A stretch of DNA of 64,000 bases. Origin: an uncultured Alphaproteobacteria bacterium (lineage in GTDB: Bacteria > Pseudomonadota > Alphaproteobacteria > HIMB59 > GCA-002718135). Location of the stretch: positions 1,212 to 65,211 of the forward strand of contig CACIBE010000002.1 of assembly GCA_902584805.1 (NCBI GenBank), in the 5' to 3' direction. Of the stretch, positions 10,780 to 40,631 are shown piece after piece (position 1 is the stretch's first letter; every line of letters begins with the position of its first letter). The notes under the pieces are model-generated. The model saw only the letters and a program-made list of their open reading frames with translations. It did not search any database and was not told where the DNA came from. The position numbers were made by a program, and so were the translations under genes.

Positions 10780-10799
10780 ACCGTATAAATATTTATGAT

Positions 10800-10833
10800 A
10801 AAGTGGAACATTATTATGTTCCACTTTTTTTTT
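10800..10833 (+). terminator. Intrinsic terminator-like or mRNA-stabilising hairpin after the binding-protein gene
   Basis: AAAGTGGAACA-TTATTA-TGTTCCACTTT followed by a T tract. Confidence 0.8.
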
Positions 10834-10845
10834 AGTAAGAAATAG

Positions 10846-21167: not shown

Positions 21168-21311
21168 ATTCTACAAAATACTAAAGTAATTAAAAAGAAA
21201 TACACAATTTTTTAAAAAAAAACGTAATAAATTTGTCAATTATTTTTGCTAAAAGCTCAAATATGTATAAAAAAAATACATACGATAAATTTATCTTATA
21301 GGAGAAAATAT

Positions 21312-23366: not shown

Positions 23367-23385
23367 GTCAACTATAAATATACTT

Positions 23386-23420
23386 AAAAGCGGCAATTTT
23401 TTATTGCCGCTTTTCTTTTT
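23386..23420 (+). terminator. Intrinsic terminator-like hairpin after the binding-protein gene
   Basis: AAAAGCGGCAAT...ATTGCCGCTTTT followed by CTTTTT. Confidence 0.8.
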
Positions 23421-23458
23421 TCTACTATTCTTAAAAATCAATTAAGTGAAATCATGCT

Positions 23459-25622: not shown

Positions 25623-25623
25623 T

Positions 25624-26613
25624 ATGAGCCATTTATTAGAAGTAAAAAATTTGGATGTAAAATTTGATACTGATGAAGGTAGAATTACTGCAGTTGAAAA
25701 TATCTCTCTTTCTGTAGATCAAGGTGAAGTACTTGGTATAGTTGGTGAATCCGGGTCAGGTAAATCTGTGACTGCTAAATCGATTATGAAATTAAATCCA
25801 GGTAATACTTCTTATAATGAAGACGCAGAAATAATTTTAGATAACGAAAATGTTCTTCAATTTACCTCTAAGCAAGACTTAAAAAAAATTAGAGGTGGTA
25901 AAGTATCAATGATTTTTCAGGAGCCTATGGCAAGTTTTGCTCCAGCAATAAAAATTGGCGCACAAATGGTTGAGCAATTACTAATTCATAAAAATATTAA
26001 TAAAGAGGAAGCAAAATCAATATCCATAAACATGCTAAAAAGAGTAGGCATAGCAGATGCAGAAAAACGGTTTAATCAATATGCATTTGAATTATCTGGG
26101 GGAATGCGTCAAAGAGCAATGATAGCTATGGCACTATCAACAATGCCTAAACTTTTATTAGCAGATGAGCCAACAACTGCTTTAGATGTAACAATTCAAG
26201 CTCAAGTAATTAACCTAATTAAAGATATTATTAAAGAATATCAAATGGGAGTAATATTTATTACTCACGATCTAGGTGTTATTGCACAGGTAGCTGATCA
26301 TGTAGCTGTTATGTATTTGGGTAGTGTAGTTGAGAAAGGTCCAGTAAATGAGATCCTTAAAAACCCAAAACATCCTTATACAAAAGGGCTATTACAAGCT
26401 TTACCTGACATAAATAACTTAGACGCACCGTTATCTCCAATACCTGGAAATATTCCAAGTCCATTAGATAGACCAACAGGGTGTGTATTTAGAACTAGAT
26501 GCCCCCATCATAATCCAGAAGGAAAAGATGGTAAAATAGAAATGAAATTAATTGAAGTTGAACCAGGTCACTGGGTTGATCAATGTGGAATTAAGTGTGG
26601 TCAAAATGGGTGA
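25624..26613 (+). CDS. Opp/Dpp ABC ATPase (OppD-like)
   Basis: GESGSGKS, LSGGMRQR, DEPTTALD, HPYT, Cys-rich tail. Confidence 0.92.
   Translation: MSHLLEVKNLDVKFDTDEGRITAVENISLSVDQGEVLGIVGESGSGKSVTAKSIMKLNPGNTSYNEDAEIILDNENVLQFTSKQDLKKIRGGKVSMIFQEPMASFAPAIKIGAQMVEQLLIHKNINKEEAKSISINMLKRVGIADAEKRFNQYAFELSGGMRQRAMIAMALSTMPKLLLADEPTTALDVTIQAQVINLIKDIIKEYQMGVIFITHDLGVIAQVADHVAVMYLGSVVEKGPVNEILKNPKHPYTKGLLQALPDINNLDAPLSPIPGNIPSPLDRPTGCVFRTRCPHHNPEGKDGKIEMKLIEVEPGHWVDQCGIKCGQNG
26551..26586 (+). repeat. 36-bp direct repeat shared with 27545..27580 (3' ends of the two ATPase genes)
   Basis: ATTGAAGTTGAACCAGGTCACTGGGTyGATCArTGT, 34 of 36 bases identical. Confidence 0.85.
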
Positions 26614-27592
26614 TAATTTAATTTCAGTAAATAATGTTTCAGTAAATTTTGATTATCAAGAAAATTTTATTTCAAAAAAACAAAAAATACATGCTGTAAA
26701 CAATATCAATATCAAAATTAAAAAAGGATCTTTTTTTGGTTTAGTTGGTGAATCTGGTTCAGGAAAAACTACTCTTGGTAGAGCAATACTTGGAGCTAAT
26801 AAAATTAGTTCTGGAAATGTTATTTTTCATGACGAAGAAAGAGATTATGATTTAACAGATATGAACAAACAAGATTTAAAAGAATATAGAAAAAAAGCTC
26901 AATTAATTTTTCAAGATCCTTATGCTGCTTTAAGTCCAAGAATGACAGTGAGGGATATTATTGCAGAGCCTTTAGAAGTGATGAAAATAACAAACTCAAG
27001 ACAAGAAACTGATGAAAGAGTAAGAGACATTGCTTCAAAATGTAGATTAAATATTGAGCATTTAAGAAGATTTCCTCATGCATTTTCTGGAGGACAAAGA
27101 CAAAGAATATCAATTGCAAGAGCCTTAGTAAGTAATCCAAAATTTATAGTAGCAGATGAAAGTGTTGCTGCTTTAGATGTATCAATACAAGCAGATATAT
27201 TAAATCTTTTAAAACAACTTCAAACCGAGCTTAATCTAACTTATTTATTCATCAGTCATGATTTAAGTGTAGTAGCTCATGTATGTGATATTGTTGCAGT
27301 TATGTATTTGGGGCACATAGTTGAAATGGGACCCTCAAGAGAATTATTTAAGAACCCAAAACATTCTTACACAAAGGCACTATTATCTTCTATTCCATCA
27401 ATTGATCCAGAGAAAAGATCTGAAGCTATAGAACTAAAGGGAGAAATTCCTAGTGCATTAAATCCACCTCCAGGTTGTGTGTTTAGAACCAGATGTCCTA
27501 ATCCTGGAGTAGATTGCAAAGGTGGAGAAATAAAAATGGGCCTTATTGAAGTTGAACCAGGTCACTGGGTCGATCAGTGTTGTGCTCTATAA
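26606..27592 (+). CDS. Opp/Dpp ABC ATPase (OppF-like)
   Basis: Start moved to the ATG at 26606; GESGSGKT, FSGGQRQR, ADE..ALD, Cys-rich tail. Confidence 0.92.
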   Translation: MGDNLISVNNVSVNFDYQENFISKKQKIHAVNNINIKIKKGSFFGLVGESGSGKTTLGRAILGANKISSGNVIFHDEERDYDLTDMNKQDLKEYRKKAQLIFQDPYAALSPRMTVRDIIAEPLEVMKITNSRQETDERVRDIASKCRLNIEHLRRFPHAFSGGQRQRISIARALVSNPKFIVADESVAALDVSIQADILNLLKQLQTELNLTYLFISHDLSVVAHVCDIVAVMYLGHIVEMGPSRELFKNPKHSYTKALLSSIPSIDPEKRSEAIELKGEIPSALNPPPGCVFRTRCPNPGVDCKGGEIKMGLIEVEPGHWVDQCCAL

Positions 27593-27610
27593 GTAGTTTT
27601 TGTAACTGTA

Positions 27611-28600
27611 ATGAAAAATATAGCATTTATTGGAACCTCTCATATTCATACACCAAATTTTATTTCTAAGGTAATTTCAAACATTAAAATTAATTGTATT
27701 GGTGTTTGGGACAAAGACAAGAATAGGTCAAAAATTGACTCTGATAAACTGCAATGTAAGAATTATGATAACTATGTTGATTTATTGAAAGAACCTAATT
27801 TAGATGGTGTTATAGTATGTTCAGAAACTAATTTGCACTATGAATTAGTTAAAAAAATTACCGAGAATAAAAAACACTGTTTTATAGAAAAACCTTTGGG
27901 GATAGGAAAAAAAGACTCTTTTAAAATGGCAAATCTTATTGAGTCTTCAAAAATTATTTTTCAAACTGGATATTTCATGAGAAGCAATCCTGTTTACATA
28001 AAGCTTAAACAATTAATTACTGATAATTATTTTGGCGAAATTTCAAGAATTAGACTCATTAATTGTCACGATGGTATTATGAGGGATATTTTCAAAAACT
28101 ATCAATGGATGACAGATCCTAAAGTTGCAGGAGTTGGAGCTTTTGGTGATTTAGGAACACATGTTTTAGATCTTCTTTTATGGTTTTTTTCTGATGTTGA
28201 GTCAGTGAGCGCAACCTTTACAAAAGTATATAATCAATATCCAGATTGTGAAGAAAGTGGAGAAGCTTTAATAAAATTTAAAAGCGGGTTGATAGCTAGT
28301 ATTGCTGCGGGATGGATAGATATAGCGCAGCCTTATACTATTTTTGTAAGTGGAACGAAAGCTCACGCAAGAACAACGAATGAGCAATTAATTATAAACG
28401 AAAATATGGAAGGTAAAAAAATAGAAAGAATAGAAGAAAATTTACCAGAAACATTGCCTCATGCATTTGATTTGTTTCTCAATTCATTAATTGATAACAA
28501 TACAAAAAATCTAGTTACTCCTACAGAAGCAGCATTGAGAAGTAGTATAATGGGATCAATTTACAAATCAGAAAAAGAAAAAAAATGGATAAATATCTAA
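27611..28600 (+). CDS. Gfo/Idh/MocA oxidoreductase
   Basis: EKP motif; GAFGDLGTHVLD. Confidence 0.88.
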   Translation: MKNIAFIGTSHIHTPNFISKVISNIKINCIGVWDKDKNRSKIDSDKLQCKNYDNYVDLLKEPNLDGVIVCSETNLHYELVKKITENKKHCFIEKPLGIGKKDSFKMANLIESSKIIFQTGYFMRSNPVYIKLKQLITDNYFGEISRIRLINCHDGIMRDIFKNYQWMTDPKVAGVGAFGDLGTHVLDLLLWFFSDVESVSATFTKVYNQYPDCEESGEALIKFKSGLIASIAAGWIDIAQPYTIFVSGTKAHARTTNEQLIINENMEGKKIERIEENLPETLPHAFDLFLNSLIDNNTKNLVTPTEAALRSSIMGSIYKSEKEKKWINI

Positions 28601-28616
28601 GTTAAAAAATATAAAT

Positions 28617-29675
28617 ATGAGTAAAATAAAAGTTGGCATTATTGGCGTCGGGGGTATTGCAAAGTTACATGTACCTGGTTGGCGCATGTCAGAACATGCA
28701 GAATTAATAGCAGGTTCCGATATAAATAATTCTATTCTTGAAGATTGGGGCAATATAAATCAAATAAATAAATTATATCTTGATCCTTTAGATATGATTA
28801 ATGATCCAGATATAGATGTAATAGATATTTGTGCGCCTAATAACTATCATTGTGATTTAGCAATTAAAGCAATGCAAGCAGGCAAAGATGTTTTATGTGA
28901 AAAACCCTTAGCTCCAAATGCCTCACAAATAAAAAAAATGATTGAAGTAAGAGATCGAACGAAAAAAAAATTAATGTGTGCTCAACACTTTAGATTCAGA
29001 AAAGATTCTCAATTAATAAAAGATCAATCCAAATCAATTGGTTCGATATATCATGCACGTTCTTGGATGCTTAGAAGAAATTTTTTACCAGTCTCACTTG
29101 GTTTTTTAAAAAAAGAAAATTCAGGAGGAGGGCCTTGTATTGATATAGGGGTGCACGTATTAGATTTAACTCTTTGGTTTATGAACAATCCAGAACCACT
29201 TTCTGTGACAGGTGTTTCAAAAACAGAATTAGCAAAGCAGCCAAATTCTTTTAGTTACAATGGTGAGTACGATAAGGAAGCAATGAACGTTGAAGATTTT
29301 GCAGCTGCGTTTGTTAGGTTTAAAAATGGTGCAACCTTGATGCTTGAAGTATCATGGATGCTTCATCATAAACTACCAGATGATAAAATAGAAGATATGC
29401 AGGTATGGCTATACGGAAGAGAAGCTGGTTTGCATTGGCCTAATTGTGAGATTATAAAAAATGATATCAATTCTCAAACTCAGATAACTAAAAAAATTGA
29501 AGGAAATTTAAAAGACACTATTGAACCTCATGCCAAAGAATGTATCGAGTTTGCAGAGTTTGTTGCAAACGATCAACCAGTTACTATTCCGGCTGAACAC
29601 TCTCTACAAGTAATGAAAATTTTAGATGGAATTTATAAAAGTCAAGAAGTAGGAAAAGAAATTATTTTAGAATAA
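28617..29675 (+). CDS. Gfo/Idh/MocA oxidoreductase
   Basis: GVGGIA, CEKP, GGGPCIDIGVHVLD. Confidence 0.9.
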   Translation: MSKIKVGIIGVGGIAKLHVPGWRMSEHAELIAGSDINNSILEDWGNINQINKLYLDPLDMINDPDIDVIDICAPNNYHCDLAIKAMQAGKDVLCEKPLAPNASQIKKMIEVRDRTKKKLMCAQHFRFRKDSQLIKDQSKSIGSIYHARSWMLRRNFLPVSLGFLKKENSGGGPCIDIGVHVLDLTLWFMNNPEPLSVTGVSKTELAKQPNSFSYNGEYDKEAMNVEDFAAAFVRFKNGATLMLEVSWMLHHKLPDDKIEDMQVWLYGREAGLHWPNCEIIKNDINSQTQITKKIEGNLKDTIEPHAKECIEFAEFVANDQPVTIPAEHSLQVMKILDGIYKSQEVGKEIILE

Positions 29676-29688
29676 TAGATTATGATTA

Positions 29689-30588
29689 ATGAAAAATAAT
29701 TTATTTTTAGCTGTTATATTATCACTTTCAGGTTTGTTTTTATTGGATTGTATGGGGATTGCGATAAAGTTTTTACGAAACGAATATCCAGCAGCTCAAC
29801 TTTCTGTTTTTAGAAATTTATTTGGAATGATCCCATGTGTTATTGCTTTATATTTTTCACATGATTGGCATCAAAACGGTAGACAAATAAAAATAACGCA
29901 ATGGAAGTTAGGATTATTTCGAGGGGTATTTGTAGCGCTGGCTCAATTGTGTTTGTACACTTCTTATGCCTACCTTCCTTTTGCTTTAGTTGCTACCATG
30001 GAATACACTGGACCCATGATGGTTACCCTTCTTGCTATTCCTACATTAGGTGAAAAATTTGGTTGGTATAAAATGAGTGCAGTAATTTCTGGTTTTGCAG
30101 GTATCGTTTTAATTATGCAACCTTGGTCATCAGACTTTAATTATATGTTATTACTTCCTATCCTTGCTGCTTTTGGATATTCATTAGCAAGGGTAACATC
30201 CTTAAGTTTTGAGGATCATGTTCCTTCACCACTTATCAACTTGTATGGTCAAACAGGGACAATCATAGTTGCATGTATGTTAGTGGTATTTTTTGGTATG
30301 TGGGAAAATTTCAAAAGTATAAATGATTTCTTAGTAGTTTGTATAATGGGGATTGCAGGAGGATCTGGAACTTTATTATTAATATATGGCGCAAGAAAAG
30401 CAGAACTTAGTAAAATTATGCCATTTGATTATATCGAGATATTTTTTGCACTTATTTTAGGTTGGATATTTTTTGCAGAATGGCCAGTTGATCAACTCTT
30501 CCCAGGTGCTTTTTTCATAGTTTTAGGTGGATTAATCATTTATCTTCAACAAAGAAAAAATAATTTTCAAAGATTAAGGAAAACATAA
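29689..30588 (+). CDS. DMT/EamA family transporter
   Basis: Hydrophobic throughout; LGEKFG, PFDY, FFAEWP. Confidence 0.85.
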   Translation: MKNNLFLAVILSLSGLFLLDCMGIAIKFLRNEYPAAQLSVFRNLFGMIPCVIALYFSHDWHQNGRQIKITQWKLGLFRGVFVALAQLCLYTSYAYLPFALVATMEYTGPMMVTLLAIPTLGEKFGWYKMSAVISGFAGIVLIMQPWSSDFNYMLLLPILAAFGYSLARVTSLSFEDHVPSPLINLYGQTGTIIVACMLVVFFGMWENFKSINDFLVVCIMGIAGGSGTLLLIYGARKAELSKIMPFDYIEIFFALILGWIFFAEWPVDQLFPGAFFIVLGGLIIYLQQRKNNFQRLRKT

Positions 30589-31640
30589 TGGAATATAAAA
30601 TTGACAAACTTCAAAATGATAAAGGTTTAGATATAAACATAGTTAATATTATTAACTCAAACAATTATAGTTTTAGTTTTTATACATATGGCGGCTATAT
30701 GAGTGAAGTTTGTATTCCAACTTCTTCAAATGTTTCTGAAACAGAGGATGTATTATTAGGCTATGGTAATTTAGAAGATTGTCTGGAAGCTCATGGATAT
30801 TTTAATTCAATTATTGGAAGAGTTTGTAATAGAATAGGACAAAGTAAATTTACTCTTAATGGGGAAGAATATAATTTATATTCTAATACCGAACCTGATC
30901 ATCTTCATGGTGGAGAGGTAGGTTTCAATAAAAAGATTTGGAAAATAGCCGATATTAAAAAAACAAGCCAAAGTATAAAAGTAGAGCTCACTTACCACTC
31001 TCAACATTTAGAAGAAAATTATCCCGGTAACTTAAATTGTAAAACTATTTACGAACTTAATAACAATAACGAAATTCTAATTTCCTTCAATGCTACTACA
31101 GATCAAGATACTATTGTTAATATGACTAATCATAACTATTGGAATTTCCATGGCCATAAAGATAATTATAAAAATATTACTGATCATGTTGTCAGAATAT
31201 CATCTAATCAAATTTGCGAAACTGATGAGGGGTCAATTCCTACTGGTAAATTATTCGATGTAGTTGATACAAAATATGATCTTAATAATTCATTTGAAAT
31301 AAATAATTCTTTTTTAGAAGGCGGTGGTATTGATCACAATTATGTACTCAAAGATCACTCTATTGATCAATCTATAGCTTCCATCTACAGTAACATTACT
31401 GGCATGGGGGTTGAATACTCGACTGATCAACCTGGAATACAATTCTATACTGGTAATATGATGAAAGATTCATATCATGGCAAACATAATCGAAATTATG
31501 GATTACAATATGGTATGTGTCTAGAGACGCAAATTTTTCCAGATGCTATTAATCAACCAAATTTTCCATCAACTATATTAAAAAAAGGCGAAACATATAA
31601 TTCAAATACAAAAATAAAATTAAGAAATGATTTTAAATAA
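30588..31640 (+). CDS. galM: Aldose 1-epimerase (mutarotase)
   Basis: GRVCNRI, HLHGG, NMTNHNYWN, DHNY, QFYTGN, CLETQ. Confidence 0.9.
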   Translation: MEYKIDKLQNDKGLDINIVNIINSNNYSFSFYTYGGYMSEVCIPTSSNVSETEDVLLGYGNLEDCLEAHGYFNSIIGRVCNRIGQSKFTLNGEEYNLYSNTEPDHLHGGEVGFNKKIWKIADIKKTSQSIKVELTYHSQHLEENYPGNLNCKTIYELNNNNEILISFNATTDQDTIVNMTNHNYWNFHGHKDNYKNITDHVVRISSNQICETDEGSIPTGKLFDVVDTKYDLNNSFEINNSFLEGGGIDHNYVLKDHSIDQSIASIYSNITGMGVEYSTDQPGIQFYTGNMMKDSYHGKHNRNYGLQYGMCLETQIFPDAINQPNFPSTILKKGETYNSNTKIKLRNDFK

Positions 31641-31686
31641 ATTAATTTATTGTTTTATAATTTTATATCTATAGACATCCGCATAA

Positions 31687-32187
31687 ATGAAAATCAGTAA
31701 AAAAATCATAGATAATTTAAAAAAAGGGGGAGTAGATTTTTACTTAAGTGTTCCTTGTAAGTTATTAGCCAACATGATTGCTATTCTTGAAAATGATAAA
31801 GATGTTTATTATTCGGCTGTACCAAGAGAGGAAGAAGGTATGGGTATTTGTGCTGGAGCTTATTTAGGAAATAAATTCCCGTGTATAATGATGCAGAATA
31901 CAGGGATTGGAAATTCAGTGAATGCAATTGTTTCTCTATTACAATTATATCAAATGCCTGTTGTTTTTCTAATTAGTTACAGAGGTACACCAGGTGAGCC
32001 AGTAGGGGCACAAGGTGGAATGGCTAAAATAACTGAAGATATTTTACAAACTTTAAGAATACCTATGTTGCATTGTTCTTCAGAAAAAGATCTTGAGAAA
32101 ATTTCAACATTTAGCAAACATGCAAAAGTTGTTGAGTCCCCAGTTGCTATATTGTGTGATTTCAATTTAATGAAAGATGATACATGA
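31687..32187 (+). CDS. comD: Sulfopyruvate decarboxylase subunit alpha
   Basis: SVPC, REEEGMGICAGAYL, MQNTGIGNSVNAI.SL, ISYRG closely follow methanogen ComD as recalled. Confidence 0.82.
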   Translation: MKISKKIIDNLKKGGVDFYLSVPCKLLANMIAILENDKDVYYSAVPREEEGMGICAGAYLGNKFPCIMMQNTGIGNSVNAIVSLLQLYQMPVVFLISYRGTPGEPVGAQGGMAKITEDILQTLRIPMLHCSSEKDLEKISTFSKHAKVVESPVAILCDFNLMKDDT

Positions 32188-32753
32188 ACCGTTTTGACCT
32201 ATTAAATAAAATACAAAATATTCTTAAAGATAACTTAGTTATTTGTAATATAGGTCTTCCATCTCAAGAATTATATAAAATTAACGATCAACCAAACTTT
32301 TTTTATATGTTAGGCAGTATGGGCTTGTCCTCTTCTATTGGTTTAGGCTTGGCACTATCGCAAAATAAACACGTTATTAGTATAGATGGTGATGGATCAG
32401 TTTTAATGAATATGAATACCCTAGCAACAATAGGTAATAGAGCGCCATCAAACTATAGTTTATTAATAATTGATAATGGATCATATGGATCAACAGGAGA
32501 TCAACGAACTTTTACTGATGAAAATACTTCTTTAAAAGATGTTGCAATAGGCGCTGGTTGTAAAAATGTAGTTGAATGTTCTGGAGATGAAACAGTAAAT
32601 GCATTGAACAAAGCCATTGATGATAAAGATAATTCATATGTAATAATTTCAAAGATCAATTCTGGGAATGTTAAAATTGATCCTATTCCAATCAATCCTA
32701 TAACTATAAGAGATAGGTTTAGAAAGTTTATCGGTATAGTTAAATACCTTTAA
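32184..32753 (+). CDS. comE: Sulfopyruvate decarboxylase subunit beta
   Basis: NIGLPSQELY, FYMLGSMGLSSSIGLGLAL, TPP motif DGDGSVLMN...DNGSYGSTG.Q; ATGA overlap with comD. Confidence 0.82.
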   Translation: MNRFDLLNKIQNILKDNLVICNIGLPSQELYKINDQPNFFYMLGSMGLSSSIGLGLALSQNKHVISIDGDGSVLMNMNTLATIGNRAPSNYSLLIIDNGSYGSTGDQRTFTDENTSLKDVAIGAGCKNVVECSGDETVNALNKAIDDKDNSYVIISKINSGNVKIDPIPINPITIRDRFRKFIGIVKYL

Positions 32754-32763
32754 TTAATATTTT

Positions 32764-33672
32764 ATGATCATTTGTGCAGGATCAATATTTACAGATTACA
32801 TAAGTAGGATAGATAAATTTCCAAAAAAACCAATTAAAGTTTTATCTAGAGGTATTGATAAAAGATTAGGTGGTTCAGCAGCAATATCTGCATTTACTGC
32901 AAAAATTTTGGGCTCTGAATCAAAATTCATAGGAAAATTTGGAAATGATGATTCATCAGTCTTTTTAAAAAATGAATTAAAAAAATTTTCTATTAATACT
33001 AGTAAATCAATTTTTATTAAAAAATGTCAGTCTTCGCAAAGCTTTGTAATTGAGGATACAAAAGGTGAAAGATTACTAGCAGCATACAATGATCCAAAAT
33101 TACTTGATTATAAGAAAATACCCAAATTAAATTTTAAAAAAAAGGATATTTATTCAATAGATATGAGATGGATAGATATAGCCTCTTATATTGCTATTAA
33201 TACCAATAAAAAAAATATTAAATGTGTTGCTGATCTAGATAATTTTAAAAATTCTAATAAAATTTCTGAAATTGTTCACAAAGCTTCGCACCCTATATTT
33301 TCTGAAGAAGGTTTGAAAACTTATAAAAAAAACATCAATATGCAAAAGGCTCTTTTTCAAATATTCAATGAAACAAATAAATTTGTTGCAGTTACTTTGG
33401 GATCAAAAGGTGTTTATTGGGTTGAAAATAACTCATTATATCATTGTAATGTTCCAAAAGTAAAAACGGTTGAAACGAATTGTGCAGGAGATGTTTTTCA
33501 TGGTGCTTTTGCAACAGCTCTATCATTAAATAAGTCAAACTCTCAAAGTATTCAATTGGCAGCAGCTACTGCAACTTTAAAATGCATGAAAGCTGGAGGC
33601 ATATATTCAATACCAAATTTAAACAACGTAAAAAAGTTTTTAAAAAAATTAAAAATTAAAAAAATTAAATGA
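32764..33672 (+). CDS. PfkB-family kinase, sulfofructose kinase (YihV)-like
   Basis: AGDVFHGA anion-hole motif plus YihV-like SSQS...DTKGER, DMRW, FSEEGL. Confidence 0.72.
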   Translation: MIICAGSIFTDYISRIDKFPKKPIKVLSRGIDKRLGGSAAISAFTAKILGSESKFIGKFGNDDSSVFLKNELKKFSINTSKSIFIKKCQSSQSFVIEDTKGERLLAAYNDPKLLDYKKIPKLNFKKKDIYSIDMRWIDIASYIAINTNKKNIKCVADLDNFKNSNKISEIVHKASHPIFSEEGLKTYKKNINMQKALFQIFNETNKFVAVTLGSKGVYWVENNSLYHCNVPKVKTVETNCAGDVFHGAFATALSLNKSNSQSIQLAAATATLKCMKAGGIYSIPNLNNVKKFLKKLKIKKIK

Positions 33673-34604
33673 CAAAAATTTTAATTACAGAATTTATAGA
33701 TTCACAATCATTGCAAAATATAGATAAAAAATTTGATGTAATTTATAAAAAAGATGCCTGGCAAAATAAAGATTTTTTAGAGAGAGAAATTCAGAAATTT
33801 GATGGCATCATCGTAAGGAATAAAACAAGTTTAGATAAGAAAATTTTAATAAATGCGTCAAATTTAAAGTTTATAGGAAGATTAGGTGTTGGTCTTGATA
33901 ATATAGATACAGAATACTGTAAAAAAAATAATATTATTGTTCAGCCAGCAACAGGTATGAATTCTGACTCTGTTGCAGAATACGTTGTGAATTCTTCTCT
34001 TACATTATTAAAAAAAACTCACATTATTAAAGAACAAACTCTACAAGGAAAATGGCCAAGGACATCAATTGTTACAAAAGAACTTAAAGGAAAGACTCTT
34101 GGTCTAATAGGTTTTGGGGATATTTCAAAAAAAGTTTTAAATCTTGTAAATGTTTTTGATGTTAGCTGTATTGCATATGATCCTTTTATAACTTCGAAAC
34201 AAATGGAGGCAGAAAATGTTAGGAAAGTTTCATTCGATGAAATTCTTAATTTGGCCGACATAATTTCTATTCATGTCCCATTAAATAATGAAACAAAGTA
34301 TCTATTTGACAGACAAGCTTTTATTAAAATGAAAAAACAACCAATTATAATCAATTCTTCTAGGGGTGGCGTAATCAATGAGAAAGACTTAATTGATGCT
34401 TATAAAAATAAATATATCTCTGGTTTCGCATTAGATGTTTTTGAAAATGAACCAGTAAATGAAGCATTTTATAACAATATTACAAATGATATGAATTGCA
34501 TCTTAACACCTCATATTGCAGGTGTAACTGCTGAATCAAACGTTAGAGTAAGTAATTTTATAATTGATAAAACAAATAAATTTTTTGAAAATTTTAAAGA
34601 TTAA
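33669..34604 (+). CDS. slcC: D-2-hydroxyacid dehydrogenase, (S)-sulfolactate dehydrogenase SlcC-like
   Basis: ILITEF.D, IVRN.T, GRLGVGLDNID, PATG.N..SVAEYV, WPR, PHIAGVT.ESN resemble SlcC; same operon as comDE. Confidence 0.7.
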   Translation: MTKILITEFIDSQSLQNIDKKFDVIYKKDAWQNKDFLEREIQKFDGIIVRNKTSLDKKILINASNLKFIGRLGVGLDNIDTEYCKKNNIIVQPATGMNSDSVAEYVVNSSLTLLKKTHIIKEQTLQGKWPRTSIVTKELKGKTLGLIGFGDISKKVLNLVNVFDVSCIAYDPFITSKQMEAENVRKVSFDEILNLADIISIHVPLNNETKYLFDRQAFIKMKKQPIIINSSRGGVINEKDLIDAYKNKYISGFALDVFENEPVNEAFYNNITNDMNCILTPHIAGVTAESNVRVSNFIIDKTNKFFENFKD

Positions 34605-35682
34605 ATTCACTCATCTTAACCACACGATTTTCTTTTATTGATTTCTCTGCTGCTTCTCCAATAGCCACTGCATGAAGACCATCATTTATAGAAACTTGTG
34701 GTTTTAAATTATTATTAATTGCTTTAATAAATTCTAAATGTTGATAATAAGTCGATCCATGATGTTGCCCAGCTGATAAAATTTTTTTATCTACCTCAAC
34801 TAATTCTTTAATTGCATTTTTAGAGTTTCTTAAACCTATTCTAACTTCTGAAGAGTTTTTTCCAGATGCATCAGCTGGCACACCTGTTTCTATTTTACCC
34901 TTATCTCCAACAACACATAACTCTTCTTGCATTTCTGAATTTTCTGCAAACATACAAAGTTCTAAAGAACTTCTTATTCCATTTTTAAAATCTAAAATTA
35001 CAAATGCATTGTCCAATATATCAGGAACTTTTCCATTATAATTTTCATTAAGATGATTTACACTTTGGTCACCACTTGCATATACCTGTGTAACTTCACT
35101 ATTTGTAATTAGGCGCATTAAATCAAAAAAATGACAGCATTTTTCTACTAATGTTCCACCGGTGTTTATTTGGAATCTATTCCAATCGTCTACTTTTTTG
35201 AGAAATGGAAATCTATGTTCACGAATTGAAAGCATTTTAAGCTTACCAATTTTATTACTATCTATTTCTTGGATCATTTTTTGAACAGGTGGCATGTACC
35301 TATACTCCATAGCCACCCATATTACTGATGGATATGAAGTTGATAATTTTTTAATTTCAAGACAATCTTCTAATTTTGTACATAAGGGTTTTTCAATTAA
35401 TAAATTTTTTTTTGTTTTTAATGCTTCTTTAATAATATCATGATGGGTAAAATTGGGAGTCGAAATAATAAAAGCATCCACTTCATTATTTTTAAAAATT
35501 TCATTATTATTTGAATAGATTTTAATATCATTTGAGATAAGATTTTTAGCTTTATTTATTGAATTTTCATTACTGTCTGAGATGGCAACTACTTCAGCTG
35601 AATCTATAAGATTAATATTTGAAATATGTTCACAACCCATTAGTCCACTTCCAACAATTCCATATTTAATTTTCGTTTTCAT
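34594..35682 (-). CDS. Gfo/Idh/MocA-fold protein, probable NAD+-dependent sulfoquinovosidase (GH188/SqgA-like)
   Basis: Subfamily motifs EYRYMPP, IREHRFPFL.KV.DWNRF, GGTLVEKCCHFFDLM, LCMFAE, HHGS; sulfonate gene context. Confidence 0.68.
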   Translation of the reverse strand: MKTKIKYGIVGSGLMGCEHISNINLIDSAEVVAISDSNENSINKAKNLISNDIKIYSNNNEIFKNNEVDAFIISTPNFTHHDIIKEALKTKKNLLIEKPLCTKLEDCLEIKKLSTSYPSVIWVAMEYRYMPPVQKMIQEIDSNKIGKLKMLSIREHRFPFLKKVDDWNRFQINTGGTLVEKCCHFFDLMRLITNSEVTQVYASGDQSVNHLNENYNGKVPDILDNAFVILDFKNGIRSSLELCMFAENSEMQEELCVVGDKGKIETGVPADASGKNSSEVRIGLRNSKNAIKELVEVDKKILSAGQHHGSTYYQHLEFIKAINNNLKPQVSINDGLHAVAIGEAAEKSIKENRVVKMSEFNL

Positions 35683-37052
35683 GTTGTGTAAATTGGAATA
35701 TTTAATTGCGCACTTAGTTTTTTTATTTCTGAATATACATCTCCATATGTGAATGCTAGATGATGTTCGATACCAGACGTGAATAATCTAACTAATTTTT
35801 GATAGGTATTTGTTTGAAATCTCACAACACCCGAAGTACCTGAAAATGAATTTTTTTTATCTAAAACTTCACCTTTAATAACAATAAATTTTAATTTATT
35901 TTCTGATTTTGAAACTCTAAATATTGTTATTTTTCCAGGTCTAAATGCAAAATCATGAAGCAATGCTTTCCTTCTATTAGAATGTACAGTTGCACTTGCT
36001 GTATTTTTTTTTGCCATACTAATTGGTGCTAATCCACAATGCCAAAAAACTAAAGTATCAGTTTTGGGATCACAATCAACAACATCTACTAAAAGTGACG
36101 GTCTGTTATTTATCTTATTTAAAATATCGCAACTTATACTTCCTAATACATCAGCTTCACATGCACTGCTAACTCCCTTTTCATTCATCATAGCCATTGG
36201 ACCACATGATGCACATCCAAATTGAGTAAACATTTCAGGCCAACACTTAATTGCAAAAGTATCAATTTTGTTATCATTTTTTATTTTTTCTAACCCATGA
36301 AAAATTGAAATACTTTTATTTAATTCATTTGCATTCAACTTAGAGACTAATTTCAAATCTTTTTTTATTTGATTTTTAGTTTTTGTAATATCTTTAGTGC
36401 TAACATTTTTAGAAATATTAAACAAAGTTTCTAATTTAATTTTCTTAAGACTATAATTTAATTTTTTTTCTATTTCTCTATTATCATAATCACAGGTAAA
36501 AAATCCATCTGGTCTTTTTCCAACAAGTCCTAAATTCTTTTTTTTTGAAAAAATAATGTCATCTTTCTTTTTAGAATTTTTTATTTTTTTCAATGTATTA
36601 TTTTTTAAAATTTTTTTATTTTTGAAAAAATTATTAATTTTTTCCATTTCGAATAATTTATTATTAATAAATATTGAAAATTCTGGCTTATATTTTAATT
36701 TGATTAAAGAATGCATCGCAAGATTTACACCACATAAAGAGTTCAATCTTAACCGCTTACCTGATCTCGGCTCTTTAAAACTTATTAAATGTATTGGTTT
36801 ATTAAATGTTTTAGCAAAACTTGTTATAAATTTTGCATCAGTGAAAGTTGTTTGAGCAATGATATATTTGCTACAATTTAGTTTTTTAAAATATCTAATA
36901 GCTTTTTTTCCTGTTTCATCATCTGTAATTAATTCTTTAAAATGTGAGTATTTAATGTCTAAAATATCTATAAATTTTTCAAACCTTTTTTTATTATCTA
37001 AAGCATAATTTATATCAAATGTATCTCTTGCTAATGCTAAATAACCAATCAT
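35679..37052 (-). CDS. L-fucose/L-arabinose isomerase-fold protein, sulfoquinovose isomerase (SqvD)-like
   Basis: AR.TFD, RLRLNSLCG.N, AIKCWPE, CEADVLG, FWHCG.AP, FSGTSG, EHH; cotranscribed with the GH188-like gene. Confidence 0.68.
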   Translation of the reverse strand: MIGYLALARDTFDINYALDNKKRFEKFIDILDIKYSHFKELITDDETGKKAIRYFKKLNCSKYIIAQTTFTDAKFITSFAKTFNKPIHLISFKEPRSGKRLRLNSLCGVNLAMHSLIKLKYKPEFSIFINNKLFEMEKINNFFKNKKILKNNTLKKIKNSKKKDDIIFSKKKNLGLVGKRPDGFFTCDYDNREIEKKLNYSLKKIKLETLFNISKNVSTKDITKTKNQIKKDLKLVSKLNANELNKSISIFHGLEKIKNDNKIDTFAIKCWPEMFTQFGCASCGPMAMMNEKGVSSACEADVLGSISCDILNKINNRPSLLVDVVDCDPKTDTLVFWHCGLAPISMAKKNTASATVHSNRRKALLHDFAFRPGKITIFRVSKSENKLKFIVIKGEVLDKKNSFSGTSGVVRFQTNTYQKLVRLFTSGIEHHLAFTYGDVYSEIKKLSAQLNIPIYTT

Positions 37053-37187
37053 TGAATTTTGATATGTTTATAATATTTTTTAACAAAATATTATTATTTA
37101 ATTTCAAAATTTGCCATTATTTCTAGGTTTTTATTACTTGTATATAATAATTTAATATGTTTTAGTCTAAAAAAAATTGGAGGATAA

Positions 37188-38468
37188 ATGATGAACTTTA
37201 AGTTTATTTTAAAAGCAATATCTGTAGCTTTAGTTTCATTCTCATTAACTTTAATTTCTGCAGTTTCTTTTGCTGCCACAGATGTACGTATTATGTGGTA
37301 TGGAGATGGAGACAAAGAAAATGTGCCAATTGCAGCACAAATTGATGAGTTTAATGCAGCTAATCCAGATATAAATGTAATTTTAGATATTGTACCATAT
37401 GATGCAATAATGAACACTCTACCTATTCAGCTTGCTGCTGGTGAGGGTCCTGACATTGCTCGTGTTACTGATCTTGGTGGATTAAACAAATATTATGCTG
37501 ATATTACGCCTTATGTAGCTGATCCAAGTTACTATGAAAAAAGCTTCGGTCCTTTTTTAAATTGGTATCGTAAGCCTGGAGATACAACTTCAATTCATGG
37601 TTTCCATTCTACAATGACCGTTACTGGTCCATATGTAAATAAAACTCTATTTGAACAAGCTGGTGTAGATCTATTAGGCCCTGGTGCAACTTGGGAAGAA
37701 TGGGCAGCAGCTTCAATTGAAGTAGCAGAAAAAACAGGTACTCCTATACCAATGGCTTGGGATAGATCAGGTCACCGTGTATCAGGTCCTGCGATTTCTA
37801 TGGGTGCGAAATATTTTGATTCAAATGGTGATCCAAAATTAGTCGATGATGGATTAAAAGCTATGACTCAAATGCTTTATGACTGGCACCAAGCAGGTAC
37901 AATGAGTAAAGATCTTTGGGGATCAGTTTCAGGATCTAAATATCATGCTCCAAATGATTGGTGGAATGCTGCTGAGGTAGTTTTCATGATGAGTGGTTCA
38001 TGGCAAATTGGAAGATTTGCAAATGAAGTAGGAGATGATTTTGATTGGTGGGCTGTACCAGCTCCATGTGGTCCTGCTGCATGTACTGGAATGCCAGGTG
38101 GAAATGCATTATTAGCATTCAATGCTAATCCAGCTGTTGGAAAGGTAATGGATTATCTTTCTAGTAAAGAACAACTAAGTAGTTTTATTGGTCAAGTTCT
38201 TGCTATCCCAGGACACTTAGATCTACAAGTTGACTATCAAACTGATGATCCAAACGCAAAACATGCATTAAACACTTTTGCTGGCGCAGTGCCAACTATT
38301 GATCAAGTCGCTTTTGATCTTCAGGCACACGTTGACAACCGTATAATGTTTAACGCAATTATCTCAAGATTAGGACAAGCTATTGTTGGTGAAATGACAA
38401 TGGAAGAAGCTTGGACGCGTATGGATGAAGATGTTGAAAAACAACTTAAAGAAAAATACGGCGGATAA
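37188..38468 (+). CDS. Sugar ABC substrate-binding protein (CUT1), digalacturonate-binding AguE-like
   Basis: SD GGAGG, signal peptide, LPIQLAAGEGPDIARVTDLGG, TVTGPYVNKTLFEQAG, DRSGHR, SGSWQI; uronate gene context. Confidence 0.75.
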   Translation: MMNFKFILKAISVALVSFSLTLISAVSFAATDVRIMWYGDGDKENVPIAAQIDEFNAANPDINVILDIVPYDAIMNTLPIQLAAGEGPDIARVTDLGGLNKYYADITPYVADPSYYEKSFGPFLNWYRKPGDTTSIHGFHSTMTVTGPYVNKTLFEQAGVDLLGPGATWEEWAAASIEVAEKTGTPIPMAWDRSGHRVSGPAISMGAKYFDSNGDPKLVDDGLKAMTQMLYDWHQAGTMSKDLWGSVSGSKYHAPNDWWNAAEVVFMMSGSWQIGRFANEVGDDFDWWAVPAPCGPAACTGMPGGNALLAFNANPAVGKVMDYLSSKEQLSSFIGQVLAIPGHLDLQVDYQTDDPNAKHALNTFAGAVPTIDQVAFDLQAHVDNRIMFNAIISRLGQAIVGEMTMEEAWTRMDEDVEKQLKEKYGG

Positions 38469-38492
38469 TTACATCCAAAATAATAATAATAT

Positions 38493-38522
38493 AAAGCTGC
38501 TCATTTTGAGCAGCTTTTTTTC
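38493..38522 (+). terminator. Intrinsic terminator-like hairpin after the binding-protein gene
   Basis: AAAGCTGCTCA-TTT-TGAGCAGCTTT followed by a T tract. Confidence 0.8.
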
Positions 38523-38533
38523 GAAATAAATTA

Positions 38534-39565
38534 ATGGAAAATATTAGAAATCAAACAAAAATTTTTTTCCTTAGAATTTTAAACATTCCCTTTGCATTTT
38601 TAATGCATGCTATTGATTTAATCATGTGGCCAATTCAAAAAATTATTGGTGTAAGAAATATGCCATATATTTTTTTGCTTCCAAATTTAATTTTTTTTGG
38701 ATTATTTGTAATAATCCCTCTTGGTGCAAACTTTTTCTTTTCATTATCATCTGGTGACGATCTGTTATTTGCTGAGAGAGAACTTCCTACAACAAAACAA
38801 TATGATCAGTTATTTGATTGTGAGAGTTATTTAAACCCAAATACATGTACAGAAGATTTTTTTTGGAGAGGAGTTTATAACACTATATTCTTTGTTGTTT
38901 TTCAAGTTGGCTTAATGATTTTCTTTTCAGTTTTGACTGCCGTGATATTAAATAAGAAAATTATTGGCAGAGGCTTTTTTAGATCGGTATTTTTTTTCCC
39001 TGTTTTATTGTCACCAGTTGTTGTTGGTTTGATTTGGCAATGGATACTGCTAAAAAATGGAGCTTTCAATGCTATAATTGAGTCTTATGGTGGAGACAAA
39101 GTATCATTTTTAACGGATCCATCATGGGCTATGGCATCTGTAATCTTTGTATCAATATGGGCCCATATGGGTTTTTACACTCTGATTGTATTAGCAGGTC
39201 TTCAAGCAATACCTCCAAATTTATATGAGGCAGCCGAAATGGATGGAACTAGCCGAGAAAGAATTTTCTTTCGAATAACTCTACCTCTTCTAATGCCAAA
39301 TTTATTAGTTGTATTTATTCTTGCCTCAATAAAAGGTGTTCAAACATTTGATGAAATATATGTTTTAACTGGTGGTGGCCCTGGAACATCTACATCATTG
39401 ATTGTTCAATATATTTTTACCACAGGATTTGCTTCATCTGGATCTGTTCAAAATTTTGGTCTTGCAGCCGCCGCATCTATGGTTCTCGGTGTGGTACTTT
39501 TATTTTTAACACTTATGCAATTATATTTCAGTCGAAATAAAGAAAGTAAACATCAAGAAATCTAA
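38534..39565 (+). CDS. Sugar ABC permease (MalF-like)
   Basis: LYEAAEMDG; FDEIYVLTGGGP. Confidence 0.9.
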   Translation: MENIRNQTKIFFLRILNIPFAFLMHAIDLIMWPIQKIIGVRNMPYIFLLPNLIFFGLFVIIPLGANFFFSLSSGDDLLFAERELPTTKQYDQLFDCESYLNPNTCTEDFFWRGVYNTIFFVVFQVGLMIFFSVLTAVILNKKIIGRGFFRSVFFFPVLLSPVVVGLIWQWILLKNGAFNAIIESYGGDKVSFLTDPSWAMASVIFVSIWAHMGFYTLIVLAGLQAIPPNLYEAAEMDGTSRERIFFRITLPLLMPNLLVVFILASIKGVQTFDEIYVLTGGGPGTSTSLIVQYIFTTGFASSGSVQNFGLAAAASMVLGVVLLFLTLMQLYFSRNKESKHQEI

Positions 39566-39566
39566 T

Positions 39567-40631
39567 ATGCCTGAAACAACTTCAAGAATAATAAAAATTG
39601 CTACAAAAAAAAGATATAAAAATAAATATCATTGGACAGATTATTTTTCTTATTTTTATTTATTTCTAGGTGTTCTTTTAATGTTTGGTCCTGTTGTGTG
39701 GTTAGGATTATCTTCATTAAAGACATTAGCAGGTATACAAGAATATCCTCCAACAATTTTGCCACTTTCTCAAATTCAAGTTGATGTTGAAGGATACGAT
39801 AAACCCTTACCAATTTTTAATGTGACACAAGAAGATGGGTCAGTAAAGCAGTTAGCACAAATTAAAAGAATTGGAATTAATGCTAAAATGGTTGATCCTC
39901 TAAACCCAGGAGAAACAGTAAAAGTACCGATTGATAAAAGAGAAAAAATTAGAGAATTTAAAATTCAGTGGCAAAACTATGTTGATCCTTTAAGAAAGTA
40001 TGATTTTTTACTTTATTTCAAAAACTCAACTTTCATTACTGTTGTAGCAACAATAATAACGCTAATAATAAATTCAATGGCAGCATATGCACTTTCTATA
40101 TATGAGTTTAGAGGGAAAAATTTTGCACTTGTTTTTGTTATAGGTACATTATTAATTCCATTAACGATAATTTTGGTTCCAGTTTTTTATGTTGTTGCAA
40201 ACTTTGGAATGATAAATTCATTATGGGGTGTAATTCTTCCAGGTGCTGCAACACCAACAGGAGTTTTTTTACTTCGTCAATATATGCTTACATTGCCTAG
40301 AGAGCTTATAGAAGCAGCAAGAATGGATCACGCAAGTGAATGGGCAATTTATTGGCGAGTTGTCCTACCTTTATCTATACCTGCTATTGCAGTTTTAGCA
40401 ATTTTTTCCATAATGTGGAGATGGAATGATTTCTTATGGCCTTTAATAGTTTTATCAAAAAGTGAAGTTTATACATTGCAAATTGGATTAAACGCATTTC
40501 ACGGAGAACTTACTAGTCAGTGGAATTATGTATTATCAATGACTATGGTAACTTTATTACCTATAGCAATTATATTTGCTTACTTACAAAAATTTATAAC
40601 AACAGGAATAGCAAGTACAGGTATGAAGTAA
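39567..40631 (+). CDS. Sugar ABC permease (MalG-like)
   Basis: ELIEAARMD; WNDFLWPL. Confidence 0.9.
   Translation: MPETTSRIIKIATKKRYKNKYHWTDYFSYFYLFLGVLLMFGPVVWLGLSSLKTLAGIQEYPPTILPLSQIQVDVEGYDKPLPIFNVTQEDGSVKQLAQIKRIGINAKMVDPLNPGETVKVPIDKREKIREFKIQWQNYVDPLRKYDFLLYFKNSTFITVVATIITLIINSMAAYALSIYEFRGKNFALVFVIGTLLIPLTIILVPVFYVVANFGMINSLWGVILPGAATPTGVFLLRQYMLTLPRELIEAARMDHASEWAIYWRVVLPLSIPAIAVLAIFSIMWRWNDFLWPLIVLSKSEVYTLQIGLNAFHGELTSQWNYVLSMTMVTLLPIAIIFAYLQKFITTGIASTGMK

Follow-up and report, generated by a model that had tools for sequence, protein, structure and literature searches.

Can a small-genome marine bacterium take sulfoquinovose (SQ) down to sulfite when the enzyme that should split the sulfonated hexose is missing from its SQ gene cluster? 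The question is raised by a 64,000-nucleotide stretch of DNA (the window), in which a first-pass annotation had read a mosaic pathway running from SQ glycosides to sulfoacetaldehyde. The two convergent gene runs on which that reading was built are confirmed in position, carry the enzyme set attributed to them, and have all seven genes intact (Table 1). Full breakdown of sulfoquinovosyl-glycerol to sulfite in one cell, with a borrowed aldolase encoded elsewhere in the genome, is the reading favoured here, with a probability of about 0.55.

The host was taken to be SAR11-like, which holds only loosely. It is likely a small-genome marine bacterium of the HIMB59/AEGEAN-169 group rather than a true SAR11 (Pelagibacterales): L001 and L003, whose isomerase is 99% identical to that of the window, are recorded under family GCA-002718135 of the order HIMB59, and a GC content of about 29% fits this family.

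Table 1. Position and predicted identity of features in the window
Feature	Position	Strand	Description
phosphate acetyltransferase-family gene (pta)	15105..16004	-	outside the cluster
Opp-type ABC system, two Gfo/Idh/MocA genes, DMT gene	21246..30588	+	upstream of galM-comDE
galM	30588-31640	+	GalM-type aldose 1-epimerase, PF01263
comD	31687-32187	+	ComD, sulfopyruvate decarboxylase alpha
comE	32184-32753	+	ComE, sulfopyruvate decarboxylase beta
PfkB kinase	32764-33672	+	YihV-like sulfofructose kinase, predicted; 302 aa
SlcC-like D-2-hydroxyacid dehydrogenase	33669-34604	+	predicted (S)-sulfolactate dehydrogenase; 311 aa, PF00389/PF02826
GH188 enzyme (SqgA)	34594-35682	-	predicted NAD+-dependent sulfoquinovosidase; 362 aa
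SqvD/SftI-like aldose-ketose isomerase	35679-37052	-	FucI/AraA fold, predicted; 457 aa, PF02952
135-bp gap	37053..37187		place of the class I (LacD/YihT-type) aldolase gene in relatives
divergent sugar ABC system	37188..42723	+	SBP (PF01547), two permeases, ATPase, internal second 2-hydroxyacid dehydrogenase

Enzymes of the two convergent runs

Junctions between the cluster genes measure -11 to +46 bp, the isomerase and GH188 genes are translationally coupled, and the plus-strand run extends upstream through the DMT, Gfo/Idh/MocA and Opp-type ABC genes. The isomerase, GH188, SlcC-like, kinase, comD and comE genes co-occur in 45 of 79 related loci in addition to the window, so that the cluster is not a product of chance.

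The sulfoquinovosidase is the firmest of the SQ assignments. Its best PDB match is 8QC2 (E 5.7e-107; the next, unrelated chain reaches 6.9e-29), and all eight catalytic and sulfonate-binding residues of ArSqgA are kept. With the numbering offset derived from the alignment, K98, Y127, R157, L161, K163, E180, H184 and H307 correspond to K107, Y136, R166, L170, K172, E189, H193 and H321 of ArSqgA, which include its sulfonate triad (Arg166/Leu170/Lys172) and its catalytic Lys107, Tyr136, Glu189, His193 and His321. The published GH188 list contains a 362-aa member from MarineAlpha5_Bin5 whose locus tag adjoins that of P0076, a relative of the window isomerase. The GH188 family call is strong, and NAD+-dependent cleavage of SQ glycosides is predicted.

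The isomerase is moderately predicted to be SqvD-like, as annotated, but not to be SftI itself. Its predicted model (pLDDT 95.7) matches AraA/FucI structures. The sole NCBIfam match, NF048012 (SftI), scores 281.6 bits where 700 are required; this model is narrow, since only one of 100 relatives scanned passes it and a Zymomonas protein encoded beside SqiA scores 288. The protein is 29% identical to P0167, which does pass. In a quick tree of 75 selected rows, built without a characterised outgroup, it groups with the isomerases of hybrid sulfo-EMP clusters (39 rows, support 99) as sister to, and not nested inside, a 21-row clade that contains SftI and P0167. RLRLN and HxNR motifs are common to the isomerase and SftI and absent from the relatives' paralogous fucose-isomerase-like protein. 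In a sample of 401 genomes, kinase, aldolase and isomerase genes are adjacent in all seven other Alphaproteobacteria with this isomerase subfamily, and in six of these a gene for GH188 or GH31 lies no more than 1.5 kb away.

YihV (7AG6) is the closest solved relative of the kinase (E 9.7e-46; next 7.4e-27), which is 35% identical to the E. coli protein. Six of seven listed YihV residues are kept (D13, K27, S95, R138, D162 and D244), but N109 is replaced by Ala, leaving two of the three ligands of the Lys27-Asn109-Arg138 sulfonate pocket; R138 is also absent from kinases of the Thioglobus group. A YihV-like sulfofructose kinase is moderately predicted.

The SlcC-like dehydrogenase shares about 40% identity with dehydrogenases of Paracoccus whose genes adjoin comC-, suyAB- or hps-like genes. 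In a tree without the characterised Chromohalobacter protein, its clade is their sister, with a support of only 85, and stands apart from the six other family members of the genome. The family call holds moderately, and an (S)-sulfolactate dehydrogenase role is predicted. Across loci this gene follows the SQ genes rather than comDE.

ComD and ComE, encoded by split, adjacent genes, are strongly borne out: ComD reaches 161.4 bits against the TIGR03845 cut-off of 147.95, and ComE passes that of TIGR03846 marginally (221.8 against 221.5). The mutarotase is indeed a GalM-type epimerase, but falls under the cut-off of TIGR02636 (256.7 bits), with 22% identity to E. coli YihR and 34% to the epimerase of a Zymomonas cluster. 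At eight of eight loci examined for this, comDE stands without the SQ genes, and galM is retained in seven of the eight; the upstream Opp-type ABC, Gfo/Idh/MocA and DMT genes are likewise kept in genomes without SQ genes. Among 103 same-genus species genomes, which are incomplete, comE is found in 84 and the kinase in 67. Together, galM-comDE and these upstream genes are a near-core operon of the lineage. Because this operon persists without SQ genes, neither the mutarotase nor comDE is SQ-specific by context, and a non-specific role of the epimerase as SQ mutarotase is possible.

The SBP family of the divergent ABC system adjoins the isomerase in 47 of the 79 loci, Thioglobus included, and a different SBP family does so in six. 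The system is probably a candidate importer of SQ or sulfoquinovosyl-glycerol; the SBP has no PDB match at E 1e-8, hence no demonstrated link to SmoF. The pta gene, said to be nearby, lies 14.6 kb away on the opposite strand, in a pta/omega-aminotransferase/alanine dehydrogenase context. It is the sole one found in the source genome, and its product could accept acetyl phosphate formed by Xsc.

The missing aldolase

What the first-pass annotation overlooked is that there is no sulfofructose-1-phosphate (SFP) aldolase. Neither a class I YihT nor a class II SqiA enzyme is found in the cluster or in the source genome (85% complete), where tblastn and HMM searches give no YihT/LacD-type match. The only PF01791 member there has the length of DeoC, and the same is true of the only member in the six genomes whose completeness is 90% or more. 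In the 115 genomes of the family the aldolase is present in nine and the kinase in 68; the aldolase accompanies the kinase in eight of these 68 and is absent from 60. At 22 of the 79 loci an aldolase gene lies directly upstream of the isomerase. Remnants of it are found in L038 and G034, and none in the 135-bp gap of the window. Both the scars left by deletion and the tree indicate that the gene was lost more than once.

Two class II aldolases are encoded on other contigs of the source genome, an IolJ-like protein (G000:C7:11027-11857) and Fba (contig C6). At the positions of the 6-phosphate ligands Ser and Arg of Fba, the IolJ-like enzyme has Gly and Ile, and SqiA has Gly and Ala. These residues are accounted for by its natural substrate, which is likewise without a second phosphate. 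The protein is only 31% identical to the SqiA-like protein and lies in an iolC-iolB context; in G081, which has the kinase and is 90% complete, it was not found.

A proposed route with a borrowed aldolase, and its alternatives

The annotated chain from SQ glycoside to sulfoacetaldehyde stands as regards its enzyme families and gains a downstream Xsc, but lacks the aldolase that it requires. As we reconstruct it from the genes, the substrate would be imported, probably by the divergent ABC system, and GH188 would release SQ and glycerol from sulfoquinovosyl-glycerol, the glycerol passing to GlpK. The SqvD-like isomerase and then the YihV-like kinase would convert SQ to SFP, which a borrowed aldolase, in the first place the IolJ-like enzyme and then Fba, would cleave to DHAP and (S)-sulfolactaldehyde (SLA). 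GabD would oxidise the latter to (S)-sulfolactate, which could be oxidised directly by an (S)-specific SlcC, so that no racemisation would precede ComDE, unlike in SuyAB routes. ComDE and then Xsc would turn the sulfonated half into acetyl phosphate and sulfite.

The xsc, gabD and glpK genes lie on contigs other than that of the cluster. With 955.7 bits Xsc clears its cut-off of 676.4; matches to it occur in 28 of 35 genomes from the same genus and in none of 24 from the sister family. No SLA dehydrogenase or reductase is encoded in the cluster; GabD (contig C1) keeps R165, R283 and C289 with the spacing of R171/R289/C295 in the Rhizobium SLA dehydrogenase, its two proposed arginines being also common to ordinary succinate-semialdehyde dehydrogenases. 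Since SuyAB was not found in the genome, the route available for desulfonation is ComDE-Xsc. Searches for aprA and a Soe-type sulfite oxidase found neither.

As to its history, a module for SQ made up of kinase, slcC, GH188, isomerase and aldolase seems to have been added behind the older galM-comDE operon and to have shed its aldolase several times later. For the lineage as a whole we tentatively propose complete SQ mineralisation by carbon-cleaving sulfoglycolysis joined to ComDE-Xsc, the dedicated SFP aldolase having been dropped repeatedly and an inositol-pathway or other unrecognised aldolase substituting.

The same losses could also have left two useful halves around a broken middle. GH188 would then harvest glycerol from sulfoquinovosyl-glycerol, SlcC-ComDE-Xsc would use sulfolactate or related C3 sulfonates scavenged from outside the cell, and wherever the aldolase is gone the isomerase and kinase would be decaying or in a side role. 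Such an outcome, which we regard as unlikely, is consistent with the scars, with the survival of comDE without SQ genes, with G130, where comDE, slcC and GH188 are kept and kinase and isomerase are gone, with glpK in the source genome, and with glycerol kinase/GlpD-like genes that adjoin the Thioglobus-group clusters; slcC is moreover split in L039. In three of four groups the kinase has a slightly higher dN/dS where the aldolase is missing (0.19-0.21 vs 0.13), and an initial grouping with L049 among its members gave 0.33; isomerase values reach 0.28 in one two-locus group. However, in three groups without the aldolase the isomerase, GH188, slcC and kinase genes have dN/dS values of 0.08-0.21, far under 1 and near those of aldolase-bearing relatives (0.13-0.21; neighbouring enzymes, 0.075-0.16), and 68 kinase matches (50-100% identity), nearly all full length, have no internal stop. 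Kinase and isomerase are under purifying selection despite aldolase loss. A dead-end kinase would waste ATP, which counts for the full pathway.

Quite improbable is a shortcut in which a housekeeping TalC-type transaldolase, as in sulfo-TAL, or a transketolase cleaves sulfofructose and the kinase is secondary. The genome has a transketolase and a TalC/FSA-family gene that passes TIGR00875; SqvA is described as closely homologous to the transaldolase of the pentose-phosphate pathway, and sulfo-TAL and sulfo-TK usually have SqvD as their partner (PMC9594981). But the tal gene has priA and atp genes as neighbours, a housekeeping context, neither a dedicated SqvA nor a split SqwGH is in the cluster, no SqwGH-type transketolase was seen in the genome, and retention of the kinase under selection would go unexplained. 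That the upper enzymes use a related sugar (sulfofucose, sulfotagatose or a non-sulfonated one), GH188 merely feeding SQ to another route, is very improbable: the altered kinase pocket, the match of the relatives' aldolase to a 'tagatose 1,6-diphosphate aldolase' subfamily model (25-29% identity to YihT) and the EMP-like sulfofucose route considered in Paracoccus (PMC12421959) would fit, but the isomerase is coupled to a full-motif GH188, has the motifs shared with SftI, and belongs to the group whose Zymomonas member sits with SqiA.

Comparison with known systems

If the borrowed-aldolase reading is true, surveys that demand every core gene miss the pathway in most carriers; most of these genomes would be called negative by published screens in which the full set of core enzymes defines sulfo-EMP (PMC13372026). 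The cluster is a direct SQ-degradation candidate, its lineage has been described as abundant in surface water, and the missing aldolase poses a small question of enzymology that can be tested directly. The recent marine SQ literature searched makes no mention of the lineage, and the papers examined on the lineage contain in their main text no word beginning with 'sulfo'.

The first-pass annotation did not know the combination of enzymes from described pathways. Hybrid sulfo-EMP1/2 clusters are already known to pair SqvD-type isomerases with YihV-type kinases (Sharma et al. 2023, PMC10665668; Wei et al. 2022, PMC9594981; also Vibrio mediterranei, PMC13372026), but the joining of such a pair to SlcC-ComDE was not found in the literature searched. 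Like these, the window has the isomerase and kinase that mark sulfo-EMP in one cluster, together with a PF01263 mutarotase and an SQase. It differs in having neither an SFP aldolase nor an SLA dehydrogenase or reductase in the cluster, and in adding the SlcC-like and ComDE genes, with which the cell would not excrete the C3 sulfonate. Plasmid pZZM402 of Zymomonas mobilis carries the same upper gene set (33-48% identical gene by gene) plus SqiA (E 4.2e-136 to 8Q57), paired with the same isomerase group.

Actinobacterial GH188 Tyr-variant clusters, described by bioinformatics only (Backlund and Higgins 2024, PMC11465081), also bring together GH188, a fucose isomerase, a sulfofructose kinase, a PGDH-like dehydrogenase, an ABC transporter and a desulfonation enzyme, and their Y158 group is likewise without an SFP aldolase. 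Theirs, however, have SuyAB, an in-cluster SLA dehydrogenase and Tyr at L170, whereas the window keeps Leu, has ComDE-Xsc in place of SuyAB and belongs to a marine alphaproteobacterial host.

In the Xsc pathway of sulfolactate and DHPS degradation, SlcC/SlcD/ComC are followed by ComDE and Xsc (PMC11382572). The window's ComDE and the genome's Xsc pass the curated cut-offs and a SlcC-like dehydrogenase is adjacent, but described cases follow hpsNOP in secondary degraders, while here the genes join SQ-cleaving ones and xsc is on another contig. Paracoccus wurundjeri, with a tandem sulfofucolytic-sulfolactate sulfolyase pathway shown experimentally (PMC12421959), likewise combines sulfohexose cleavage with C3 desulfonation via SlcC in one cell; it does so for sulfofucose, by ED chemistry and SlcC/ComC-SuyAB, whereas the window's predicted route would serve SQ by EMP-type cleavage and ComDE-Xsc.

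Cluster layout and enzyme assignments

The cluster is real and conserved. The two convergent operons proposed in the first-pass annotation are borne out by the ORF list, with gene junctions of -11 to +46 bp, and the cluster GC content (0.28-0.30) is similar to that of the remaining window. Isomerase, GH188, SlcC-like dehydrogenase, kinase, comD and comE occur together in 45 of 79 isomerase-bearing loci fetched from one-genome-per-species contigs, in addition to the window. Another 14, mostly Thioglobus-like, have isomerase, GH188 and kinase without comE. A promoter and terminator scan did no better than chance, with 52 hits against 57.4 expected. Part of the stretch is contained in 14 seawater or aquatic metatranscriptome runs, and 23-29 of its 30 bins are covered by contigs from 4 runs, each from a different study; these contigs come without a silent control, so neither transcription nor its level follows. 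Recombination has made the island a mosaic within the genus: at G112:C2:280716-286498 and G026:C3:66000-86000, in two other genomes, the kinase is 92-94% identical to that of the window and the adjoining isomerase just 50-59%.

Coordinates of the features discussed (window positions unless a contig is named; G000, the window's genome)
Feature	Position	Strand	Source
HisD-family gene	128-1447	-	
Opp-type ABC system, two Gfo/Idh/MocA genes, DMT gene	upstream start of run	+	ORF list
Opp-type ABC-DMT-galM-comDE operon	21246-32753	+	
PfkB kinase	32764-33672	+	
SlcC-like dehydrogenase	33669-34604	+	
GH188 protein	34594-35682	-	
Isomerase	35679-37052	-	
Sugar ABC system	diverges from isomerase, 135 bp off	opposite to isomerase	ORF list
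ComC-like and CuyA-like genes	50114-51163; G000:C1:32753-33802; C1:39778-40776		

The GH188-like protein, already named as a sulfoquinovosidase, matches structure 8QC2 with E 5.7e-107 (next unrelated chain in the PDB match, 6.9e-29). The eight key residues that Kaur et al. (PMC10755693, in part) name, mapped through the 8QC2 alignment, are all kept in it; its activity is a prediction. The supplementary member list of that paper holds a MarineAlpha5_Bin5 protein of 362 aa, along with one protein from Ca. Thioglobus and one from Zymomonas. The likeness of the kinase to YihV largely holds, since the E. coli protein is its closest match and D13, K27, S95, R138, D162 and D244, among the residues named in part of PMC8006165, are kept, but N109 is replaced by Ala. 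Of the 62 locus kinases, 48 have Arg at position 138, 8 have Asn and 6 have His. In Thioglobus-like kinases (loci L041-L063), N109 is replaced by Val and R138 by Asn or His.

The isomerase has the proposed AraA/FucI fold and matches the SftI model alone, but at 281.6 bits against a cut-off of 700, which only 1 of 100 relatives scanned reaches; a PDB sequence search gave no match. A quick tree built on 75 selected rows places the marine isomerases in one clade (support 100), inside a 39-row group (support 99) to which the Zymomonas isomerase also belongs. The sister of this group holds the sole true SftI. The SlcC-like dehydrogenase shares about 40% identity with Paracoccus dehydrogenases adjoining comC-, suyAB- or hps-like genes and groups beside them with support 85 in a comparison set without a characterised SlcC; a homolog search with this protein returned no informative name. 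ComD and ComE both exceed their cut-offs, ComE narrowly. The mutarotase is of GalM type and only 22% identical to YihR. A CuyA-like gene on contig C1 (266.5 bits, cut-off 450) and two ComC-like genes (170 and 211 bits, cut-off 500) all score under the curated cut-offs and were left out of the pathway.

Probable losses of the aldolase

The first-pass annotation inferred a chain from sulfoquinovose (SQ) glycoside to sulfoacetaldehyde. Its named genes are present, but the sulfofructose-1-phosphate (SFP) aldolase needed after the kinase was found neither in the cluster nor in G000 (1.37 Mb, 85% complete): no dedicated enzyme was matched by a 23-sequence HMM or by tblastn queries comprising E. coli YihT and the aldolases of three relatives. 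In 22 of the 79 loci, the place of the window's 135-bp gap, immediately ahead of the isomerase, is taken by a class I aldolase (PF01791). Its identity to YihT is 25-29%, and one of its Lys residues aligns with the Schiff-base region of YihT. All 7 other Alphaproteobacteria having this isomerase in a 401-genome sample show the order kinase-aldolase-isomerase. A PF01791 match on contig C18, first read as yihT-slaB, is deoC adjoining an aldehyde dehydrogenase. Weak LacD-like matches in four genomes (G005, G008, G022, G027) were also rejected, the two loci examined being another cluster with a paralogous isomerase. These two loci, L146 and L147 (G022:C7, G008:C12), join the paralogous fucose-isomerase-like gene to LacD-like aldolase, DHA-kinase-like and epimerase-like genes in an uncharacterised rare-sugar cluster.

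Among 115 genomes of family GCA-002718135, the aldolase is found in 9, the kinase in 68 and both in 8, so that 60 of 68 kinase-positive genomes are without it. Incomplete assembly is ruled out as the cause, since among genomes at least 90% complete 6/11 have the kinase and 0/11 the aldolase; each of these six has one PF01791 member, of DeoC length. Remnants persist upstream of the isomerase, a gene start in locus L038 and a gene end in genome G034 (the scar of G061 is identical to that of L038, and the two were counted as one). In the quick isomerase tree, aldolase-bearing loci are nested among aldolase-less ones, and the sister is the aldolase-bearing Thioglobus group. Together, remnants, nesting and sister group point to several losses, the count of which is blurred by gene swapping inside the island.

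Isomerase, GH188, slcC and kinase are under purifying selection with or without the aldolase. Their pairwise NG86 dN/dS values, in that order, are 0.16/0.15/0.18/0.14, 0.17/0.08/0.14/0.19, 0.20/0.16/0.20/0.21 and 0.28/0.18/0.19/0.19 in four aldolase-less groups (2-3 loci in the last), compared with 0.13/0.16/0.21/0.13 where the aldolase is present (3-4 loci) and 0.075-0.16 for neighbouring enzymes. Since pairs are non-independent and GC3 is only 0.12-0.23, small differences carry little meaning.

Candidate stand-ins in G000 are Fba (contig C6), TalC (C5) and an IolJ-like class II aldolase with an iolC-iolB neighbourhood (C7). SqiA is described as missing the 6-phosphate ligands of FBP aldolases (PMC10665668, in part); these are missing in the C7 aldolase and kept in Fba. 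This makes the C7 enzyme a candidate for SFP cleavage, but the ligand evidence is just suggestive, because the protein is 31% identical to a SqiA-like Zymomonas protein, its type occurs in 80/115 family genomes irrespective of SQ genes, and it was not found in G081 in that survey.

Predicted downstream route, the comDE operon and host lineage

comE is present in 86 of the 115 family genomes. In all eight loci examined from comE-positive, kinase-negative genomes of the same genus, slcC is absent and unrelated genes come immediately after opp-DMT-(galM)-comDE. In another genus, G130 keeps comDE-slcC-GH188 without kinase or isomerase. Thus slcC goes with the SQ module, while galM and comDE form part of a seemingly older operon that has its own role. 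G024, G011, G105, G123, G001, G035, G071 and G097 retain the Opp-type operon in the absence of SQ genes, the G097 copy having no galM. At G130:C2:31000-48000, ABC-GH31-comD-comE-slcC faces GH188. Thioglobus-group carriers have aldolase and slcC, and comE is over the cut-off in 0/5 genomes of that group, so the ComDE link is not general among marine carriers.

The stereochemistry fits the proposed route. Sulfoglycolysis yields (S)-sulfolactaldehyde (SLA) and (S)-sulfolactate (SL), SlcC is an (S)-SL dehydrogenase, and ComDE followed by Xsc converts sulfopyruvate into acetyl phosphate and sulfite (PMC12421959, PMC11131964, PMC11382572, each in part). Here, (S)-SL would be oxidised by an (S)-specific SlcC and the product would follow the same two steps. 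Xsc scores 955.7 bits on contig C33, the window has one Pta-family gene and GlpK is above cut-off in G000. GabD (C1) matches 8C54 with E 4.5e-176, among other succinate-semialdehyde dehydrogenases; it keeps the arginine pair proposed for SLA dehydrogenase (bioRxiv 2023.03.13.532361, in part), a pair common to ordinary SSADHs. No SuyAB, AprA or Soe-type molybdoenzyme was detected in G000, and the substrate-binding protein of the sugar ABC system had no match in a PDB sequence search. The HisD-family gene near the window start, which comes after several SnoaL-like genes, is a second hisD (the other is on C3); it is 47% identical to a Paracoccus versutus protein in an hpsNOP-like context and possibly an HpsN-like DHPS dehydrogenase.

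The host was taken to be SAR11-like. Loci L001 and L003, with isomerases 99% identical to that of the window, and several at 57-59% are listed under order HIMB59, family GCA-002718135 (supplement of PMC10734472), and this AEGEAN-169 group is set apart from SAR11 and described as using a wider range of sugars (PMC10308909, in part). The host is thus likely of the HIMB59 order, judged by its relatives' listing rather than by a marker tree. The SQ module is concentrated in one genus: the kinase is in 67/103 same-genus genomes versus 0/11 in the family's other genera, and the sister family has weak isomerase paralogs alone (9/24 genomes). Elsewhere, Thioglobus-like L041-L063 (SUP05/Thioglobus-group genomes) have aldolase-isomerase-GH188 plus kinase and slcC, frequently along with glycerol kinase/GlpD-like genes. 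In Caulobacterales/Steroidobacteraceae-type L066, L069, L072 and L076, kinase-aldolase-isomerase-GH31 is joined to suyAB-, comC- and slcC-like genes and a TonB-dependent receptor-like gene; labelled by likeness, these are a further candidate for one-cell SQ mineralisation.

Relation to known sulfoglycolytic systems

By its gene content the cluster appears to work like a hybrid sulfo-EMP pathway leading into an Xsc route; with no dedicated aldolase found, it is not a sulfo-EMP member by the usual definition. The mixture of SqvD-type and YihV-type enzymes, at first held unfamiliar, has precedents in described hybrid clusters (PMC10665668, PMC9594981, PMC12890257, PMC13372026, each in part). The wider claim of an undescribed combination survives for the joining of SQ genes to SlcC and ComDE. 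Neither this nor the lineage as an SQ consumer was found in the literature searched, with subscription papers and bioRxiv supplements outside its scope, nor by term search in the available parts of PMC12780224, PMC13372026 and their readable supplements. Complete single-organism catabolism outside oxygenase routes is not demonstrated, according to part of PMC13436972. Foremost among the new findings stand three: the lineage, the link to ComDE and the apparently repeated loss of the aldolase while other pathway genes stay under selection.

The Zymomonas plasmid pZZM402 bears a set of SqiA, epimerase, isomerase, GH188-like protein, GabD and kinase. On Zymomonas mobilis pZZM402 (locus L105), the hybrid sulfo-EMP cluster with SqiA, GH188-like and GabD genes lies at 128-11361 and 29853-33853; a D-cysteine desulfhydrase-family gene and a racemase gene there recall CuyAB. 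Actinobacteria (PMC11465081, in part) have comparable tandem clusters, but with SuyAB, and one group of them is without an aldolase.
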